DNA of 58,949 nt, counting the filler, from Globobulimina sp. (taxonomy: Eukaryota): NCBI GenBank assembly GCA_003354225.1. It is 8 parts of 8 records of this genome, joined end to end, with 100 filler letters (N's around TTAATTAATTAA, not from the genome) between each part and the next. Parts side by side here need not be neighbours in the genome. Positions count along the whole stretch, not along the records: positions 1 to 7,292 come from PIVH01000170.1; 7 more parts are not named here. One strand, 5' to 3'. Positions 1 through 14,782 of the stretch are shown here, one piece after another; the stretch's first letter is position 1, and the number at the start of each line of letters is the position of its first letter. The notes under the pieces are model-generated. The model made no database searches and had not been told where the DNA came from. It saw only the letters and a program-made list of their open reading frames with translations. The position numbers and the translations under genes were made by a program.

Positions 1-447
1 GTATGGGTTTGTATGAGTATGCATAAGGGTGGATTTTATTTGAGACGGTTACTGTTGAGAGTACTTTTAAAAATCTGAACATCTCAAAACTGAACCCTCT
101 GAACCAATCTACAGGGAAAGTACTAGTAAATCAATGCAACAAAATAGATGAATTAACCAAGGCATATGAATTTGATCCATTAATTATTGAATTGAATGGG
201 ATCAATTATAAAATATAGGTACAATGGATATTCAATTATAAAAGCAATGTTCTAGATATTTACAGAATGTAAATCATCAAGGTATTGAATATGACCATCG
301 TAACAATAATATTGAGCTGTTTGTTTATATGTTTTTTATTTACTTCAGTCAACAAAAAACTTGTTTGCGTAACAGATTTAATACCCTCGTCAGAAAAAAA
401 CACAAATTCCTCGTCGTAGCAAACTAGTCCTCGGAAACATCAACAGA

Positions 448-1977
448 ATGCCTCAAAGGAGAAGAGAAAGATCGCCAGAGGATCCTGAGGAAAAGACCTA
501 CGTCTCGGGTACACACGTTCCGGACGATAAATATTATTACACCGGAAACGTTTTAGGACATCATTTACAAATCGTTCCTATTAAATCAGCAGCAAACCGT
601 GGTGCCATTGGAAGTACAACAATTGCAGCAATCGCAACATTAATAAAATTGAAATTAATATTTCCATATGGAAACACCAAAGGAATTGAGGTTGATTTGG
701 ATGGTTTAAGCACTGCTTATGATAAAGCAGTAAAATACGAAACAAATAATGACGATCACAGTCCGGTCGATCATGACAATTTGAATTTATTATTGGAAAA
801 TGATGTTTGGTTTTGGGCCAAATTGACACCCAAAAGAGTGCCTACATGGGATAAGAGAAAGGATTTATTGGATCCTCTCTTAGATGTATGGGAATTCCCA
901 ACCCAACTAACTGATAGTCATGGAACCGGAGCTAGAGATGAATCTGTATCAGTATCAGAATCAAATATTTCTGAGAAAGACCCAGATTCTGACGACATGT
1001 TTATTGCGGATGATGAAGACATTGTTCTATCTCATTCTGATAGTAAGCAAAGTGAGCGAAAGGATGACATTGCGACGCGGATTCGGAGATTTATTCCTTC
1101 GCAATTTGTAAACGGTGCAAATACAGTTAGATATGAAAAAGGTTTTAAAACGAGATTTAAAATGGTTATGGATGCCAGAAAGAAGATGGTTATGGACATA
1201 GGGAAACATAGAAAATTGCCCAAAGTAAATTATAAATCAGTAAAAGGTGAATTCAATGCCTTTAATCATAAAATGGGCCAATTTTTGATTTGTTTTCGGA
1301 TTTATTACAATTTACCGCCAGATTTTGCCAAATTTGCGCGGATATTTGACATGGACCCAAATGGAAACACTTTACCTACGGCCGTTTCAAAGGTGTTTTG
1401 GGAACAATTTGCCTTCTTAGAAGAAAAGGGATATATCAATGAATTGGGAAAAAGAATGAGAGCGTTCGATACATTGGATGTCATTCCCAAGGAATTATAC
1501 CATGTTAGGAGAGATAAAGTATATTTAAAGAATGATAAGGAAGGAGCTACCATTGATTTGACAGATCAATGGGATGTTTTATCTGAACCACCCAAGAAAA
1601 AGAGAAAGATTGATCTCTCCGATGATACATCGTCTAAATCATTGCCGGTGAGTGATTCAACCACAAATTTAATATTGAACAGATTGGACGTATTAGCTGC
1701 CAATATTGGTAGCATAAACTCAACAATCTCCGCCCAACAAAATTCCAACAACATATCCCCTGCAAAGCATTCAGTCAAACAAATGTTGAACGAATCAAAA
1801 CGTGGAATAGGTCGTTGGAGCAAGGAACATTATGTACATAAAACAGTATTAGGCTTTGAAATGATTGCCCAACAAACCCAAAAGATCCAACAACAAAATT
1901 CCAGTCAAAAAATATATGATAAAATGATGAATAAATCATCCAACAAAGGCATTGTTGATGATATACAAGGTACGTAG
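448..1977 (+). CDS. Retroelement ORF1 (gag-like/leader protein, 509 aa; probably exon 1, ending at 1969)
   Basis: Long ATG-initiated ORF with acidic tract and NLS-like PPKKKRK. Ends in CAAG|GTACGT (donor at 1970) just before the stop. Confidence 0.75.
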   Translation: MPQRRRERSPEDPEEKTYVSGTHVPDDKYYYTGNVLGHHLQIVPIKSAANRGAIGSTTIAAIATLIKLKLIFPYGNTKGIEVDLDGLSTAYDKAVKYETNNDDHSPVDHDNLNLLLENDVWFWAKLTPKRVPTWDKRKDLLDPLLDVWEFPTQLTDSHGTGARDESVSVSESNISEKDPDSDDMFIADDEDIVLSHSDSKQSERKDDIATRIRRFIPSQFVNGANTVRYEKGFKTRFKMVMDARKKMVMDIGKHRKLPKVNYKSVKGEFNAFNHKMGQFLICFRIYYNLPPDFAKFARIFDMDPNGNTLPTAVSKVFWEQFAFLEEKGYINELGKRMRAFDTLDVIPKELYHVRRDKVYLKNDKEGATIDLTDQWDVLSEPPKKKRKIDLSDDTSSKSLPVSDSTTNLILNRLDVLAANIGSINSTISAQQNSNNISPAKHSVKQMLNESKRGIGRWSKEHYVHKTVLGFEMIAQQTQKIQQQNSSQKIYDKMMNKSSNKGIVDDIQGT

Positions 1978-2487
1978 GGTCTGTCCTATTTTGTCAGGTG
2001 AGTCGTGTAAACAAGTTGCTTGTTTATAATCTTTTGTATGGCTTTGGGCTGCCTTGTTTACATCGACTTCATCACTATTTCTCTTGGAGTGGAGTGGTGT
2101 GTGATGTATTTTTCCTGTGTGTTGTTTGAATCTATTTAAGTTTTGAAATTGATTGTGTAGGAACCAAACATCACCAAATTCCTAAAAACACGATTGATTC
2201 ATATTCAGAGTTACAAATTCTCAGCAACAGTTTCTGATTATATCCAACATCAATCACCAATGTTAGATGAGCAAAGCGTTCCACCCTTTAGGAACATAGC
2301 TTTTAGCTCAAAATATCTATTCTACGGTGTCCACGAGACTGTTTTACTTGAGAAGTAACATTAAATCACAAAACGGCCAAAGTAGCACACTTTACACGGT
2401 AGTAAGCTGCTCTAATGGTCCAGTGATCTCCTTATCTGACCAATGCAAATCGTTGTGAACCAATTATAATTTTATACATAATTTCAG

Positions 2488-3530
2488 ATTCAGATGAGAG
2501 TGGAGATTCATCGTCGGACAAACCTAAAACAAAAACAAAAAAACATAAGAAATCCAGAAAACAAAGACGAGTCCACTCACAAACTGATCTACTTATGTTC
2601 ATATGGAGAACAAATGAGACACAAATGACTGATATTATGTTACATGTGCTTAAATATGGAGAGAAGTGCAAGAATTTCCGGAGAATAAGTCCGAGCACGA
2701 CCATACAAAATATTTTTACTGACAAATCCAATGTATATGCTTTCATCGATGAGGTGCAATTTATTATAAATGATTGGAAAATCCATATTGTGAGACATTC
2801 ATCCGACATTTTAACCCAATTAACACGTCTTTACAAACGTAAATCATTATCCATTGTACCATCGACAGAATTAAAACGTTATAATTTAATGTTAGAAGCA
2901 GCATCACATGATTGGACTGAATTTCGTGTGATTTTACAAACCATTGTGTTAAATCAAAAAATTGATCCCCAGTTATTCTATAAATTCCTAAATGAATCCA
3001 TGTCCTTAGCAATGGATAAACAAATAGCAATAACAGCGGCAATACGAGACAATCACCTTAGATCAAAATTAAATATTGAAGCAAATGAAGGTGTAGTTTC
3101 GGATCAAATGTGGTTACAAGAAATGTTTCCAAACTATAGTCATTCAGAACTCCTAAAGGCACAGAAACAGATTGCTGATCATAAAAATGCGACTGCAAAA
3201 GCAGCAGCACTCAGCAACCCATCACAACAGAAAATCCCCAAACAAACCAATAAATACACCAAGCAAAGTGGTGGAGGAATTACCCGAGACGCAAGGAAGT
3301 CGCGTACCGACGCATTGCATACATGGCAAAGGGAAATCAAATCAAGATTAAAACCTACGATCAAAGAAAACTTAGCAAATTATTGTGCACCTCATCATAT
3401 GCCAGAAATGACATGCAGATCATCAGGAAACATGTGCAATACTGGTGGCAGAAACAGATATCATGCCTGTTTATGCGGAGAATTAACACATACCATTCCA
3501 AATTGCAAAAAGATATTTCGCAATCAATGA
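2488..3530 (+). CDS. Gag-like protein with C-terminal Cys/His zinc knuckles
   Basis: C-terminus YCAPHH...TC...MC...YHACLCGELTHTIPNC resembles the CCCH+CCHC array of DIRS/Ngaro gag. Frame is open upstream of ATG 2595 to the acceptor tttcag at 2487. Confidence 0.8.
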
Positions 3531-3807
3531 TTGATCTTGTTTAAGACATTTGACTTTGATCCCTTTTAACACTAAATTTGCAATTATTAAATTCATCTCT
3601 GTCTTTTTAACAGTGTTGAATCGACACTTTACGTTTTCGCTTTCGACCATAACATCTGGTACATAACATTGTGTGTAATTGTTGCGTGGAATCACATTAC
3701 GCCGTTGTGTCCTAAGTTGTTCGCCTAACGAACCCATCCTTAAACTTAGAAAGGACTCGAAAACTTTCCAAACGTCACTTATATCGACAAAAAACACTAG
3801 TTTCAAA

Positions 3808-3910
3808 CAAGTATAATGATAATTGATACATAAACATAATCGATTATGAACATGACATTTTGTTCAAAATGTCATGTCAAGTATACTCATAATTGATACA
3901 TAATCATAAT
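3808..3910. repeat. Imperfect 33-bp direct repeats flanking a 14-bp palindrome and a 13-bp perfect hairpin
   Basis: caagtataatgataattgatacataaacataat (3808-3840) vs caagtatactcataattgatacataatcataat (3878-3910); CATAATCGATTATG at 3835-3848; ACATGACATTTTG-TT-CAAAATGTCATGT at 3850-3877. Confidence 0.9.
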
Positions 3911-3981
3911 ACCAAAATAGTGATTTTAATCGTCATTATTGTGATCATTAAATAAATCCTTGTTTATTTTCCTTTACACAG

Positions 3982-5717
3982 ATAATGTAATTCCGAATCT
4001 TCAATTACTTGATCATGAATGCTCTGATCTACTCCAAGAATTAGTAGATTTATACTCCCATCCACCGCATATTCCACATCATTTTAATATACAACTTTTC
4101 CGTCATTATTTACAGGATCATCCTGATGGTGATATCCATATTAACTACATTGAAAATGGATACCCATTATTCTTGAAAGACAGAGATCCTTCCAATCTAT
4201 GCCAAAAAGTATCCAATATTGTAAGAAACAAAAAAGAATTAAAAGCCATTCTTTCCAGAATGGTCAAAGAAGCAAAGAAAGGATATATACAACCATCTGA
4301 TACCACACTTCATTACAACTTAAATTTATTATGTGTCCCAAAGCGCAATAATGATACACTCTTAATGACAGATATAAGAGTAGCCAGACATGGCTCATAT
4401 TGCACCAATCGCACAGTTGCAATAAATCAAAAAATAGAAAAAGATGCTTGTAAGATTCCAACTTTACCAAATATCCGAAAATACATTGAAATGCTTCAGA
4501 AATATGATTTTGTTACATTGCGTGATCTAAAAGATGCTTTCAGACAACTCCTCAATGCATTGGAAGACACAGATTTTATACAATATTGCTTATTTGGAAT
4601 GCGATTCCGTGACTTACGCATAGCGTATGGCATCGCCTCAGCAGCAGCAAATTGCCAGCAATTTGCTCAAATCTTGATTTGGATTCTTGAAAATAAATAC
4701 TTAAAACCACACCAAAGAAACCGAATTTTAGTCCATATTGATGACTTTTTATTAGCTGCAACGAGTGAGGCAGAAGCATTAGAATTAGCCTGTAAATTTG
4801 ACCAAATGTGTGATGATTTAGGTGTAAAAGTATCACACGCTAAAGATGAAAATGCCATTTTTGAAGGTGTTGTACATGGTTTTGGATTTAATCTAAAATC
4901 AAATGATGTTCACATACCTGAACATAAACTCAACGAGTTATTATATGGTATCTCATTAATAAAAACGTATCGATATGCAACAGGAGTTGCGCTGGAATCA
5001 ATTTGCGGTAAAATTATGCATTGGTCTCAATTCAGAAAACCAGCAAAAATTCTCTGCTACCGATTACTAAAATTAATCCATGACAAAATCCGTGCGAGTC
5101 CCAAATTGAAATATAAAATTTTTTGGGTACCAGACCCCATAATTCGTGACTTGACTTTTTGGGCTAAATATACTATTAACATGAAATCGGTGACAATGGA
5201 ATCAATTTTAAAACAACCATCAATTACAATTACTGGCGCAACAGATGCGAGCAGTGAAGGTGGTGGATTCATCATAGGCGAATTCTACGGTTCATATGAA
5301 TTCCGAAATGAATCTAATAAATTTGATATAAATCATCGTTTAATGTCCATCAATTATCAAGAAGCACATGCAGTAATTATGTTACTTTATAATTATCGTC
5401 ATATGCTATCGGGTCGTCAATTATTATTATATATAGATAATACTTCGGTGATGTATAGTATCTATAAATACTGGGCGGGAAGTCCGAGATTAATGGAATT
5501 CATCCAAGAAATAGTGCTTTTGATGTGTATATATTGTATTGATTTAAGAGTCGAATTCATTCCCTCTAAACTCAATGGATTGGCCGATTCATTATCGAGA
5601 TTTGATTGGGATAGATTCAACGATTTAGTACGGACCTTTAATCTTACAATTCAGTCAGAAGCGACTTGCTTAGAATATTACCCTTATCTACGACTATTAC
5701 GCGACCCAAATTTCTAA
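3982..5717 (+). CDS. Reverse transcriptase / RNase H (DIRS/Ngaro type)
   Basis: RT motifs DLKDAFRQ, YGIASAA, LVHIDDFLL. RNase H motifs TDASSEGGG, INYQEAHAV, YIDNTS, NGLADSLSR. Start placed at the acceptor at 3981. Confidence 0.95.
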
Positions 5718-5826
5718 TTTACAATACGACTTTATATTTGCTTCTGACTCAAGCCTTGTAATAAGAGTTTTTCACATTTTTCAAACTAAAATATCAAAAA
5801 ACCTTTTCTTCTTTGCCACCTTTCAG

Positions 5827-7091
5827 AGTTAACACGACACTCTTTTGAGCAATATGAAGCTACAAAAGCAGATATCGCAACCACCAAAATCATCCTCAGA
5901 GATTTATTTCGTTCACGTCGCATTACAACAAAAACGAATTATTGCTCTATTTTAAAAGATTGGTGGGGTTATAGTTTAGAATATGGAAACAACCCATTTA
6001 CAAAGAAAATAAATCCATCCTTCGCAGCATTATGGCAATATAACAGAAGCCTTCGATTAGGCTCTTGTAACTCACACAAAAATTGGTCAGCTGCCCTTAG
6101 TTGGTGGGTGAAATCAAATGGAGAGACACCAACATTTTATAAAAATGGATTTTATGAGACAGTACATAAAACAATGTTGAAATTATATATGAAATCAAGG
6201 AAATTAAGATTACCAATAAGAATACATTGGATCGTTAAGTACTTACGTCATTTAAATGTGACCCCAGAAACCTGGGAAACCGTCCCATTGGATAAGCTAA
6301 CTTTGAGTTATTTATATTTAATGGCATTTTTCACCATAAGCCGCCCAGGCGAGCTCCTATACACAAATAGCACAGAAAACGAGAAATGGGAGACAATCAC
6401 TACTGGTCTACGTTGGGGGGATATTACCCTTAAAAACACCAATAAACCATATACTAGACGTTATAAAAAGATCTTAATTCATTGGTACAAGAATCAGGAA
6501 TTTAGAAATGAACCGAAAGAGATATTTATGGCACCACCAATCTGTAATAGAGATAAATGTCATTGTAAACAATTGGATTTTTATGCAATGTTTTTGGTTT
6601 TGAAAAGGAGGAGAAACAAATTAGTAAACAATTTAAAATTGAGAGCTAGAATAAATCCAAGCAAATCATTATCAAAACAAATCAAAAATTTGGACATTAA
6701 ACCATCAAACTATATATTTGTTGGCACAAATGGTGCAGTTTGGAGACCTTCCAAATTGGCAGAAAATATGAAAAAATTTGTTCGAGTCATTGACATGGAC
6801 AAAAAATTTGCCTATGTACCTTATTCATTTCGGATTGGAGCTACATCTCTTTGCCATCAGCAAGGAATTGATCTATTAAAAGTGTTGCGATTTGTAGTAT
6901 GGTCTATAAAGAGTTTGCCTCACGTATCAAATCGATACATTATGTTTACGGAGAAACACCTAAGAATCCTACCTTTTGAAATGATACATGGCAGGAATAT
7001 TCCTGGCAAAGTTAATATTGATAAAAGTAGTAATTTTTTAAAAGTATTCAATATTTGGGAAGGGCAATTATGCGAAACTTTATTCAATTAA
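5827..7091 (+). CDS. Tyrosine recombinase (YR)
   Basis: FFTISRPGELL (first Arg), YSFRIGATS (H/Y-x-x-R), VVW...SNRY (Trp, catalytic Tyr). Frame is open from 5790 and includes an N-terminal core-binding-like segment (TTKTNYCSILKDWWGY) upstream of the GTG at 6108. Confidence 0.92.
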
Positions 7092-7292
7092 ATAAAATGA
7101 CTTATTTACCAAGGGTTCACAACACAACAATCAAACTTGTACATCAATACTAAAAACACTTTTGAATATTGAATTATTTAACACAAATTACGAAAACACA
7201 AATTTTGTGATTTTTAAAACAAACCAACAGAAATTTCTCAACACTCAGGGCAGTCGGGTAGGCGATCGTTTCTAGAAACACTTTTCTATAAT

Positions 7293-7392
7293 NNNNNNNN
7301 NNNNNNNNNNNNNNNNNNNNNNNNNNNNNNNNNNNNTTAATTAATTAANNNNNNNNNNNNNNNNNNNNNNNNNNNNNNNNNNNNNNNNNNNN
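7293..7392. other. Artificial contig spacer
   Basis: 44 N + TTAATTAATTAA (stops in all six frames) + 44 N. Confidence 0.99.
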
Positions 7393-7471: not shown

Positions 7472-10389
7472 CTAATCATCTCTGATTGAAGAGACAAACA
7501 ACGGTCCTAAAACAAGTGCGGTCGTAGACATGGTAGTAATCACAACATGCAAAGCAGGACCAGCAGTATCCTTAAATGGGTCACCGACAGTATCACCCGT
7601 CACCGCAGCGGCATGAATCTCTGTACCTTTTAAATTCTTGGATTCAATTAATTTCTTTGCGTTATCCCATGCACCACCGGAATTGTCTAAAAATATTGCC
7701 ATCAACAACCCACTCATGGTGCCAAACATTAAAAAGCTTGCAATCCCTTCAATTCCTAACATCGGCTCATTGGTTATATATGTCCCAATAAATTTGAACG
7801 AAATGCCAATAAATACGGGCGTACACAATGCCAACAACGCAGGTTTCACCATTTCTTTTAAGGCGCAGCGCGTCACAATTTCCACACATTTGCCGTACTG
7901 TGGTTTGTTTGCATACTCCATAATCCCTTCGATTTCACGAAACTGTCTGCGCACTTCATTCACAACTTGCTGTGCTGTACGACCCACTGCGTCGATACTC
8001 CACGCTGTGAACACAAACACCATCATAATCCCCAACAAACCCGCGATCATAATGGTCACTTTGGTGATATCGACATATTCGATTTGCGTCCCAGTCAAAA
8101 TACTAATTTCATCCAAAAACGCATTAAATAATAAAAAACACGCCAACGCACTGCCGGCCACTGCATAGCCTTTGGTCGCTGCCTTGGTCACATTACCCAC
8201 TGCGTCCAATCTATCTGTAATTTTCCTGTTTTGTTTTTTCAATCAATAGCACAACATTGCAACATAAAATATATTAAATCAAACCTGATTTCATTGGATT
8301 GATTTGTCATTTCGACAATACCGCCGGCATTATCCGCAATGGGCCCAAAATTATTCATCGACAACACATACACGGCAGTACACAACATGCCCATTGTTGC
8401 GCATGCAGTGCCAAACAGTCCTGATAAGTGTTTCTCTTTTAAGCCGCTGTTAAAGCCCAAAGTGTAGGATGCAAACAATGAGATTGCGATTATAATCGAG
8501 GGCAAACCGGTCGACTCCATTCCAACAGCAATCCCACTGATTATATTCGTGCCATGTCCAGTGCCTTGATATCATTCCAAATCAATATCAAATCAAATCA
8601 CACAAAGTAGCATAAAAAACATACGCGAGGCACTCACTATTTTCAATACCGGCGCATGAGTGTAATCAGTGTAATATTGCGTGATTAGCACAATACAAAA
8701 AGCACACATTAACCCCACAAAGCCACACAAAGCAAAATGCCACCAAGCATCCGGAGCTACGCTGGTATACAACAACAAATAGCAAGCGCATACAAATAAA
8801 ATGATGGCCAATACCAACGCGATGGCATATCCTCGCATCATTGGTTTGATCGCATCTTCATATTCGTCGTTGGTGGCAGTAAAATAAATACCCACAATGG
8901 ACACAATCAAATCCAACGAATGGATAATTAGCGGGAAGAAGATATATAATTCGATGGATTCGATCTCAGATTTAATGGCCAGCGTTGCGCCTAAGATCAT
9001 AGTACCAATCATTTCGGCAGCAATGGACTCGAATACATCCGCCATACTCCCGGCACAGTCCCCAACATTATCCCCCACTAAATCCGCAATCACCGCAGGA
9101 TTTCGAGCGTCATCTTCCGGGATTCCCTGCTCTATTTTACCACACATATCAGCTCCGACATCAGCCGCCTTGGTAAAGATGCCGCCGCCTAACTGCATGA
9201 ATAGCGCCACAAAGGAAGCACCAAAGCCATAGCCGCCGAGTAACAGCGGTATTTCAGCTGGATTGACGCCCATGAAATGAACGAATATTAATGTACCGAT
9301 GATGTACAATATAGCTAAGCCCAAAATGCACATCGATGCGGATATAATGGCAGACACCGCACCGCCACGAAAGGCCAATAGAAATGCATCAGAATAGTCG
9401 TAGGTGGAGGCGGCGGCGGCCACGCGTAAATTGACACGCACAGAAGTCCAGACACCGGTATATCCGGCCAGAGCACTGCAGAATGCGCCTATGAGAAATG
9501 ATATGGCGGTCACCAGAGCTAAAATGAATGGTGATACATGTGACGATGATTCGGTTCTGATTAAGTATATGATGAATAATACAATGGCAGTGCCGATGGC
9601 GAACATAGCAATAGATTTGTACTGCGTTTTTAAATATGAGTTGGCTCCTTCTTTAATAAAACCAGCTATGATGTGCATGTCTGTGGTGCCGCAGTCCTTC
9701 GTCATTATCCAGCGTACCGTGTGTGAGCAATACCAAAATGAGGCCACACACACCAACATTGCGAATGTCGTCACTAACATGGCAGGCTTTGGAAGCACAA
9801 TCATGCCTAAAATAAGTGCAATGACACAGCAACCCATCAAGATGTATATGAATTGATCAAATTCATGACTTAGTTCACCTGTGCTGCTGTGCGCTGACAT
9901 TGATTTTGGTGCTCTGGTTGTCATCACCTTGATGTCGCCAATCTGATTTTCAGTTTTGTTCAATAAAGATTTATGTTCTGTTGTGGTTGATATTGGATTT
10001 AGTTGGTACTCTGAATAATAGTTTCCTCCCTTCCTGGTGTTTGCGCATATTTTAACCAACATATCCATGGAGTATATAAATAAAATGAGTAAGGCGATCC
10101 CTTCAATCACTGATGAGTCAATCTTTCCGATTTTTGTTTTATTTAAAAAGTATAATGTGACATCTAATGCAATTAATGAAAACACAAGTAATTGAAAATA
10201 TAGTGAGTCAATTATTGTTTTGATCAATGGTTTGCTTGGCGGTTCACGCCGTTTTGGTTTGTCACTGGTCTCATCATCCATCATACTTTCAATTGAATTG
10301 ATAGGTGCAATTTTTTTAGGGATTTTTTCATTGAATTTGCGTGCTATCAACGTACTCTGTTGCAATGGCTCAACTTCTTCGATTGACAT
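7472..10389 (-). CDS. Membrane H+-translocating pyrophosphatase, K+-independent (AVP2-like), with N-terminal voltage-sensor-like extension; exons 10389-8625, 8564-8285, 8225-7472
   Basis: Motifs GGGIFTKAADVGAD, IPEDDARNPAVIADLVGDNVGD, GPIADNAGG, GNVTKA (Lys marks K+-independence), GDTVGDPFKDTAGP. GT-AG introns 8624-8565 and 8284-8226 restore the frame (~932 aa). Confidence 0.95.
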
Positions 10390-11022
10390 TCGCAAAAATT
10401 GTTTTTACTAAAGTTGATGAAAAACTACTATGCGAAGTAAATGTAAAAAAAAAAGAGCGGATACAGTTAATGTCAATCAGAATCGCAGGCAAACGAAGCC
10501 TTGAAACATCCTAATGCTTACTGGCCAGTTTTAAATGCATATTGTATGCACGAACGAGGCTCATAGCGTACGCCAGCGGGGATGGACATAGATTCTATGG
10601 TGATTAATGCACTAAACTGTACCCTAACCAAATCCTATAACACTATATCTGCGGTATACAGTTGAAAGTAGAATGTATTACTTTGAGTTTTGTTTGAAGT
10701 TAATACAGAAAGATCTCCAAATGTATTTTGCTAGTGTTAACAACACTAAACTATAACTAGCTGAGGAGTAGTATTAGTATAGGATAGTAACGTAGATGGT
10801 TATGCGGAACACAACCACTACAATCAACTGTATGGTGAATGTTATAACTGGACTGGCTTGTCCTTCCCTTGCATGCAAACCTATATTTATAGTACAAAAA
10901 TATGATATCAATTTATTTATGGGACATTTTTGATGGAAACGAATATTTTGCAACACATTTTAGTTGTAATTAACGTTGAATGGTACATTGGATTAATATG
11001 TTTTAATATGTCACAATAAAAG

Positions 11023-14682: not shown

Positions 14683-14782
14683 NNNNNNNNNNNNNNNNNN
14701 NNNNNNNNNNNNNNNNNNNNNNNNNNTTAATTAATTAANNNNNNNNNNNNNNNNNNNNNNNNNNNNNNNNNNNNNNNNNNNN
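14683..14782. other. Artificial contig spacer
   Basis: 44 N + TTAATTAATTAA + 44 N. Confidence 0.99.

Follow-up and report, generated by a model that had tools for sequence, protein, structure and literature searches.

Among the tyrosine recombinase (YR) retrotransposons, the Ngaro elements carry on one strand one or more gag-like open reading frames (ORFs), a reverse transcriptase with RNase H (RT/RH) and the YR. They encode no methyltransferase and their ORFs do not overlap, according to three descriptions (PMC4157794, PMC3266345, PMC13465315). Splicing of retrotransposon RNA has been described for copia, BARE, Ogre and env-bearing gypsy elements; in Ogre it takes place between ORFs, and in copia and BARE it yields an RNA for gag only (PMC3735527). 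Here we analyze a retrotransposon from Globobulimina sp. (GenBank assembly GCA_003354225.1) which fills nearly all of positions 1–7292 of a stretch of 58,949 nucleotides (nt), called the window in the following. It is apparently an intact Ngaro-like YR retrotransposon with four separated ORFs, which follow each other on the plus strand in the order ORF1, ORF2, RT/RH and YR. We consider it likely that the downstream ORFs are expressed by alternative splicing from one donor to three acceptors, with the unspliced RNA as the replication template.

According to this scheme one primary transcript would be made, which in its unspliced form would encode ORF1 and serve as template for replication. The single phase-1 donor at the end of ORF1 (CAAG/GTACGT) would be joined alternatively to the acceptor at 2487, 3981 or 5826. 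The products would be fusions of ORF1 with ORF2 (gag-like with Zn knuckle), with RT/RH or with YR, and their ratio would be set by the choice of the splice site and not by frameshifting or readthrough. The features concerned are the following.

448–1969, plus strand: ORF1, proposed exon 1, from ATG 448 through base 1969, where the exon ends in phase 1
1970–1975, plus strand: proposed 5′ splice site GTACGT after CAAG (1966–1975 reads CAAG/GTACGT)
1976–2056, plus strand: conserved non-coding block (alignment A4; in the related loci L001 and L006 at 2097–2172 and 1267–1352)
2486–2487, plus strand: proposed 3′ splice site 1, tttcAG, phase 1, upstream AG-free stretch of 62 nt
2488–3530, plus strand: ORF2 exon with acidic, serine-rich N-terminus, helical body and C-terminal Zn-knuckle-like C-x-C-x4-H-x4-C
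3980–3981, plus strand: proposed 3′ splice site 2, ttcctttacacAG, phase 1, upstream AG-free stretch of 59 nt
3982–5717, plus strand: RT/RNase H exon, first in-frame ATG at 4260
5825–5826, plus strand: proposed 3′ splice site 3, ccacctttcAG, phase 1, upstream AG-free stretch of 57 nt
5827–7091, plus strand: YR exon, first in-frame ATG at 6174

With Ngaro the element shares the gag-like ORFs, RT/RH and YR on one strand, the absence of a methyltransferase and the non-overlapping ORFs. The first-pass annotation of this sequence had stated that DIRS and Ngaro elements usually have long overlapping ORFs; this holds for the DIRS1-like elements but not for Ngaro. We call the element Ngaro-like on the ground of its gene order, the missing methyltransferase and the separated ORFs, which fit the published descriptions of Ngaro. 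It differs from Ngaro in that a proposed intron divides its gag-like part into ORF1 and ORF2 and in that ORF2, RT and YR have no start codon they could use and begin at conserved phase-1 acceptors.

The expression plan resembles that of the retroviral env and accessory genes, where a single upstream donor has a choice of several downstream acceptors. As proposed here for the element, the unspliced retroviral RNA is both the mRNA of the first gene and the genome. Part of the retroviral packaging signal lies just downstream of the major 5′ splice site, and it is at this place, just after the donor, that the element has its conserved non-coding block. Unlike in retroviruses, however, the first ORF carries the donor in phase at its 3′ end, so that every product would be an ORF1 fusion, and the polymerase and the recombinase would depend on splicing. 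Further, the element has a YR and not an integrase, and no long terminal repeats (LTRs) were seen.

In Ogre (Ty3/gypsy) as well as in copia and BARE (Ty1/copia) splicing also governs the expression of the element's own ORFs, but these are single events in LTR elements, whereas here three alternative acceptors would operate in a YR element. Penelope-like elements likewise keep spliceosomal introns in their genomic copies. Their introns are mostly in the 5′ untranslated region and do not fuse ORFs, and their enzymology is different (GIY-YIG, target-primed).

The first-pass annotation knew of no such scheme in YR retroelements, and our search of the full-text literature, as far as accessible, also brought up no case of native splicing in DIRS, Ngaro, PAT or VIPER (PMC7192593, PMC6681497, PMC4157794, PMC3783388, PMC13465315, PMC3266345, PMC5718144, bioRxiv 10.64898/2026.05.21.726589); older work behind subscription, outside the reach of this search, may bear on the novelty. 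The DIRS-1 paper mentions splicing only for an artificial marker intron. New would be a Ngaro-like lineage whose expression depends on splicing in a retrovirus-like manner, whereas splicing as such is known from LTR retrotransposons and retroviruses.

Proposed splice sites and their conservation

In the window copy base 1969 is codon position 1 of the ORF1 frame (382–1977), which makes the proposed intron a phase-1 intron. The frame has a stop two codons on, and without splicing ORF1 ends at this TAG (1975–1977). The G of each acceptor is codon position 1 of the respective downstream frame (starting at 2427, 3945 and 5790). If joined, the junction codons would be G+AT (Asp) for ORF2, G+AT (Asp) for RT and G+AG (Glu) for YR, and the introns would measure 517, 2011 and 3856 nt. 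These positions, phases and junction codons had been put forward in the first-pass annotation, and each coordinate is borne out by the sequence and the reading frames. Donor-like hexamers are few: five are present on the plus strand of the window and none downstream of 1998. Within ORF1 the one at 1970 is the only one in phase 1, and ORF2 and RT end in the window with true stops and without a donor. A look for RNA runs that contain positions 300–7292 returned none. Three runs, all of them contigs of one sample, were compared with the element. X1 among them covers it at a depth of 15–30; no joint at the predicted junctions was found, and four other joints have sides of only 26–29 letters.

The ORFs are separated by 517 nt (ORF1 to ORF2), 450 nt (ORF2 to RT) and 108 nt (RT to YR). 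Both larger gaps have stops in all three frames, and in the last gap the stop of RT is followed by two further stops in the frame common to RT and YR. The first-pass annotation had called the gaps non-coding.

Relatives were collected with an RT-alignment scan of metagenome contigs, which gave 12 loci with an RT identity of 32–69%. Two of them (L003 and L004) are near-identical and a third (L010) is close to both, and the distinct lineages number about 7 for RT, about 10 for YR and about 3 for ORF2. Scans of the collections viral_contigs and genome_contigs gave no further relative.

A phase-1 AG is located exactly at the onset of protein conservation in 8/8 loci for RT, in 11/11 for YR and in 3/3 for ORF2 (the ORF2 equivalents are at 2510 in L001, overlapping an upstream TAA, and at 1482 in L006). 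By comparison, only 560 of 9172 codon boundaries in the same ORFs have a phase-1 AG (6.1%) and only 248 a phase-1 YAG (2.7%). YAG is present at 21 of the 22 acceptors, including all RT and all YR acceptors. The position of the YR acceptor is constant: it precedes the D of the conserved KD by 16 codons in the window copy, L001, L002, L006 and L008, and the motif I[GT]TK by 32–33 codons in 11/11 loci. The codon ahead of the YR junction is outside of the conserved protein and variable (ACA, ATA, TTA, TCA), yet it always ends with A and is always followed by G.

Upstream of all 22 acceptors there is an AG-free stretch of 23–72 nt (median 46 nt; 23–63 nt for RT and YR), and each acceptor is the first AG after it. 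The usual distance between two AGs in these sequences has a median of 10 nt and is at least 20 nt in 31% of the cases. Such an AG exclusion zone is a requirement of 3′ splice-site choice by scanning. RT homologues which extend N-terminally past the junction mostly carry there the dipeptide that NYA/G would encode, [S/T/L] followed by [D/E/G/A] (22/29).

The donor is found as phase-1 CAAG/GTA(A/C)GT in 3/3 loci holding the end of ORF1 (window 1970, L001 2091, L006 1261), each time directly after a conserved [IV]QG. Donor, acceptors and phase, whose conservation in relatives had been named as a check on the splicing proposal, are hence conserved wherever these loci cover them. Among the 37 ORF1 relatives, 21 cover the C-terminus of the homologous region. 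Twenty of them end with [QH]G and K/L/M/T/I, followed by an unconserved tail of 1–45 amino acids (15 recognized by pattern; P0141, P0143, P0147, P0157 and P0163 read by eye). G and K/M/T/L followed by W/L/C/F is what G/GT(A/T)NGT is expected to encode. In the remaining relative, P0148 (1175 amino acids), the ORF1 homology ending with LVNDIQ (residue 795) runs straight into ORF2 homology at D796, and the C-terminal 380 amino acids are colinear with ORF2 of the window (E = 4e-20). P0148 is an ORF1–ORF2 fusion joined at the predicted junction. The conserved sites and the junction of P0148 argue for the shared leader proposed in the first-pass annotation, which would be spliced to three alternative exons.

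Such a leader appears to be needed. In the window the first in-frame ATG follows the acceptor after 36 codons in ORF2, 93 in RT and 116 in YR; in 5/8 RT loci its distance from the AG is 89–95 codons. An in-frame stop is found only 4 and 2 codons ahead of the RT acceptor in L001 and L006, respectively. H59, G72 and N91 of alignment A1, which are invariant in 30 aligned RTs, lie upstream of the first Met of RT, and the 116 ATG-less codons of YR are modeled as confident helices that form part of a match to Cre. This agrees with the earlier observation that ATG 4260 and ATG 6174 are preceded by conserved-looking N-terminal segments. Since the exons of most loci are ATG-less for 56–116 codons, the start codon must come from a leader joined in phase 1.

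Right after the donor, about 90 nt are conserved at the DNA level between elements whose RTs are only 55–69% identical. This block contains GGGTCTG (1977–1983), a second donor-like sequence GTGAGTC (1998–2004), a hairpin (2008–2026) in which two pairs have compensatory changes (RNAalifold, three sequences), and GCTTTG (2041–2046). The latter is predicted to pair with CAAGGT of the donor, and the putative stem is invariant among the three sequences. Many of the tails of the ORF1 homologues (KWVC, KLGL, MWVC, TWVC) would encode the same GGGTCTG.

In L006 we further observed two apparent short introns of phase 1, one inside ORF1 (about 1098–1170, GTATGT...ACTAAC...ACAG) and one inside ORF2 (about 2022–2100, CAAG/GTTAAGT...ACACAG). 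With these additional introns genomic copies would retain introns through retrotransposition.

Weight of the splicing scheme and of other explanations

The conservation described above supports that the phase-1 donor and the three phase-1 acceptors are functional splice sites across the family. From the sequences we infer the use of these sites, the joining of the one donor to each of the three acceptors and the role of unspliced RNA as the template. The pairing of the donor with the RT and YR acceptors is proposed because the phases match and there is no other in-phase donor-like hexamer.

Several points weigh against the alternative-splicing scheme. The ORF2 acceptor of L001 is AAG and not YAG, the pyrimidine content ahead of the acceptors is uneven (0.35–0.90, median 0.65), and in 7/29 RT homologues the residues at the expected offset do not match the junction dipeptide. 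An ATG is present one codon after the AG in RT of L003 and L004 and in YR of L006, and L009 has in-frame ATGs upstream of both acceptors; some relatives could therefore begin translation on their own. The proposed introns of 517–3856 nt are far above the two host-type introns of about 60–70 nt seen in a gene on the next contig. P0148 may be an intron-less genomic ORF and not a spliced product. Finally, no fusion of ORF1 with RT or YR was found among the homologues; the searches with RT and YR took only proteins of 0.55–1.75 times the query length, and therefore such fusions could not have appeared.

It could be argued that only the intron from donor 1970 to acceptor 2487 is real. It would restore a split gag-like ORF1–ORF2, while the acceptors of RT and YR would have another partner, for instance a trans-spliced leader or an upstream donor that escaped notice, or these ORFs would be expressed in another way. 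The junction of ORF1 and ORF2 is the sole one with a matching fused protein (P0148), and the introns ahead of RT and YR, with 2–3.9 kb, are very long compared to the two host introns. We nevertheless regard this explanation as unlikely: the acceptors of RT (8/8) and YR (11/11) are conserved as well as the ORF2 acceptor, they have AG-free zones of 23–63 nt and the phase of the donor in every locus, most of the exons are ATG-less for 56–116 codons and ORF1 of the window offers no other phase-1 donor-like hexamer.

Quite improbable in our view is that splicing does not occur at all and that each ORF has its own subgenomic transcript or is translated by internal or non-AUG initiation, with the splice-like motifs being incidental. 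This would leave unexplained why a third-position A is followed by a first-position G at 22/22 sites (background 6.1%), why there are AG-free zones and matching phases, and why the donor is conserved and 20/21 ORF1 homologues end with [QH]G. An ATG at or just after the acceptor, as expression without splicing would have it, is seen in a minority (RT of L003 and L004, YR of L006, L009). As every junction is of phase 1, a serial join would be in frame if donors existed, and three constitutive introns could then all be removed to give one ORF1–ORF2–RT–YR polyprotein. However, true stops end ORF2 and RT, no donor-like GT is found at or before the stop (window, L001), and the window has no donor-like hexamer beyond 1998. 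The donor-like GT at the first break of the ORF2 frame of L006 belongs to an apparent internal intron and not to the end of ORF2. Moreover, only a short stretch follows the Zn knuckle in the ORF2 C-termini of the window copy, L001, L006 and P0148. A polyprotein is thus extremely improbable.

If the alternative-splicing scheme is true, it accounts for the expression of the enzymes from the separated, ATG-less ORFs of Ngaro-like elements. Splicing would then join frameshifting and readthrough as a route to fusions of the Gag-Pol type and would govern all downstream genes of a YR element. The elements would be a second group of retroelements, beside the Penelope-like elements, which retain introns through retrotransposition, and intron retention predicts a means to export and select unspliced RNA. 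The scheme also provides a gene-calling rule for the family, whose predicted proteins now begin at arbitrary codons of the polypyrimidine tract or at an internal Met.

More tentatively, a widespread lineage of protist YR retrotransposons might have converged on a retrovirus-like RNA logic, with gag-like protein, polymerase and recombinase all being made as ORF1 fusions; we consider this possible but rather doubtful. Introns would outlast retrotransposition since copying would be restricted to unspliced RNA. The block that follows the donor would label this RNA for packaging or hold splicing back, and its stem could hide the donor.

Encoded proteins and class of the element

ORF1 has no Pfam family. 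Its AlphaFold model has a mean pLDDT of 76.9 and two confident domains; searches gave no match by sequence in the PDB (best E = 0.8) and no clear structural match (Foldseek best E = 1.4, VIA wide search best Z = 4.8). These results do not speak for a new fold. A word-index search retrieved a single relative, a full HMMER profile search 37. ORF1 is evolving fast.

Counted from the acceptor, the RT/RH ORF comprises 578 amino acids; it ends behind the match to RNase H, and the homologues are of like length. Its Pfam matches are just below the cut-offs (RVT_1 with E = 1.2e-6 and 28.8 versus 29.6 bits, RT_RNaseH with E = 4.2e-4 and 20.9 versus 24.8 bits). We found 106 homologues with 24–69% identity, many of which have PF00078 and PF17917 precomputed. 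Pfam detected neither a methyltransferase domain in the proteins of the element nor a further family in the RT/RH ORF.

YR has no Pfam match, but its AlphaFold model (pLDDT 81.7) is matched by Foldseek to Cre recombinase with E = 1.3e-7 and a probability of 1.00 over about 372 columns, followed by XerH, IntI, Tn1549 Int and lambda Int. In the alignment with 22 homologues (A3) R185, E188, K234, R348, H378 and Y383 are nearly invariant. These residues fit the catalytic set R-K-R-H-Y, if they map onto the Cre residues as we suppose. In the chimeric protein P0125 (430 amino acids) an N-terminal half resembling ORF2 is followed by the C-terminal half of YR; P0125 probably derives from a related element by internal deletion.

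The element thus combines an RT with RNase H and, in place of a DDE integrase, a YR, as is found in YR retrotransposons, and like Ngaro it has no methyltransferase after RT/RH. The split direct repeats of Ngaro have A1 at the 5′ end and B1, A2 and B2 downstream of YR. Positions 1–7292 showed no repeat that connects both ends, but the contig probably breaks off within or ahead of the termini. L010 has a perfect direct repeat of 103 nt downstream of YR (2955–3057 and 3387–3489, 432 nt apart), the second copy of which extends to the contig end. Such a repeat would be expected as B1/B2 of split direct repeats; none of the loci includes both ends.

Two other classes were considered. DIRS1-like elements have a methyltransferase, inverted terminal repeats with an internal complementary region and often long ORF overlaps. 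The present element does not agree with this: a methyltransferase is missing, its ORFs are 108–517 nt apart, and the only inverted repeats from end to end measure 15–18 nt in a contig that may lack the true ends. VIPER elements have YR ahead of RT/RH, and this does not agree with the order ORF1, ORF2, RT/RH, YR.

Ends of the element, repeats and neighboring contigs

The window is a chain of contigs of a draft assembly, ordered by falling size from 7292 to 7262 bases and joined by linkers. The element contig is 1–7292 only, and the neighboring genes are therefore not the genomic context of the element. The remaining features are these.

272–294, plus strand: conserved 23-nt block AATCATC..GGTATTGAATATGA, common to L001 (350–372)
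3808–3910, plus strand: two 33-nt direct repeats (91% alike) around a 28-nt palindrome in the gap between ORF2 and RT
7293–7392, then at 14683, 22071, 29457, 36841, 44222 and 51588: artificial linkers N44-TTAATTAATTAA-N44, seven in all
7472–10404, minus strand: gene of a V-type H+-pyrophosphatase (V-PPase) on the next contig, split by two short introns

A scan of 1–7292 against Rfam gave no family with an E value of 0.1 or better. At the left end, positions 1–244 have an X1 contig depth of 448 (one variant up to 1685) compared to 15–30 over the element, and X1 contigs have loose ends at 128, 162 and 246. Positions 1–244 are hence a different, far more abundant repeat, and the left border of the element should be near 245–372. 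The block 272–294 is about 150–175 nt upstream of the start of ORF1 in both loci having the 5′ region, the window and L001; the remaining 11 loci are without the 5′ end. One X1 contig (depth 18.8) connects 401 with 7256 and leaves out 6854 bases; its shorter side has only 26 letters. This joint may represent a solo remnant or stem from a chance repeat. Over the repeats at 3808–3910 the X1 contig depth is 55.7, about threefold that of the flanks (about 18). The introns of the V-PPase gene, read by eye, are about 70 nt (C/GTATGT...CAAG) and about 60 nt (AG/GTTTGA...ACAG) long.

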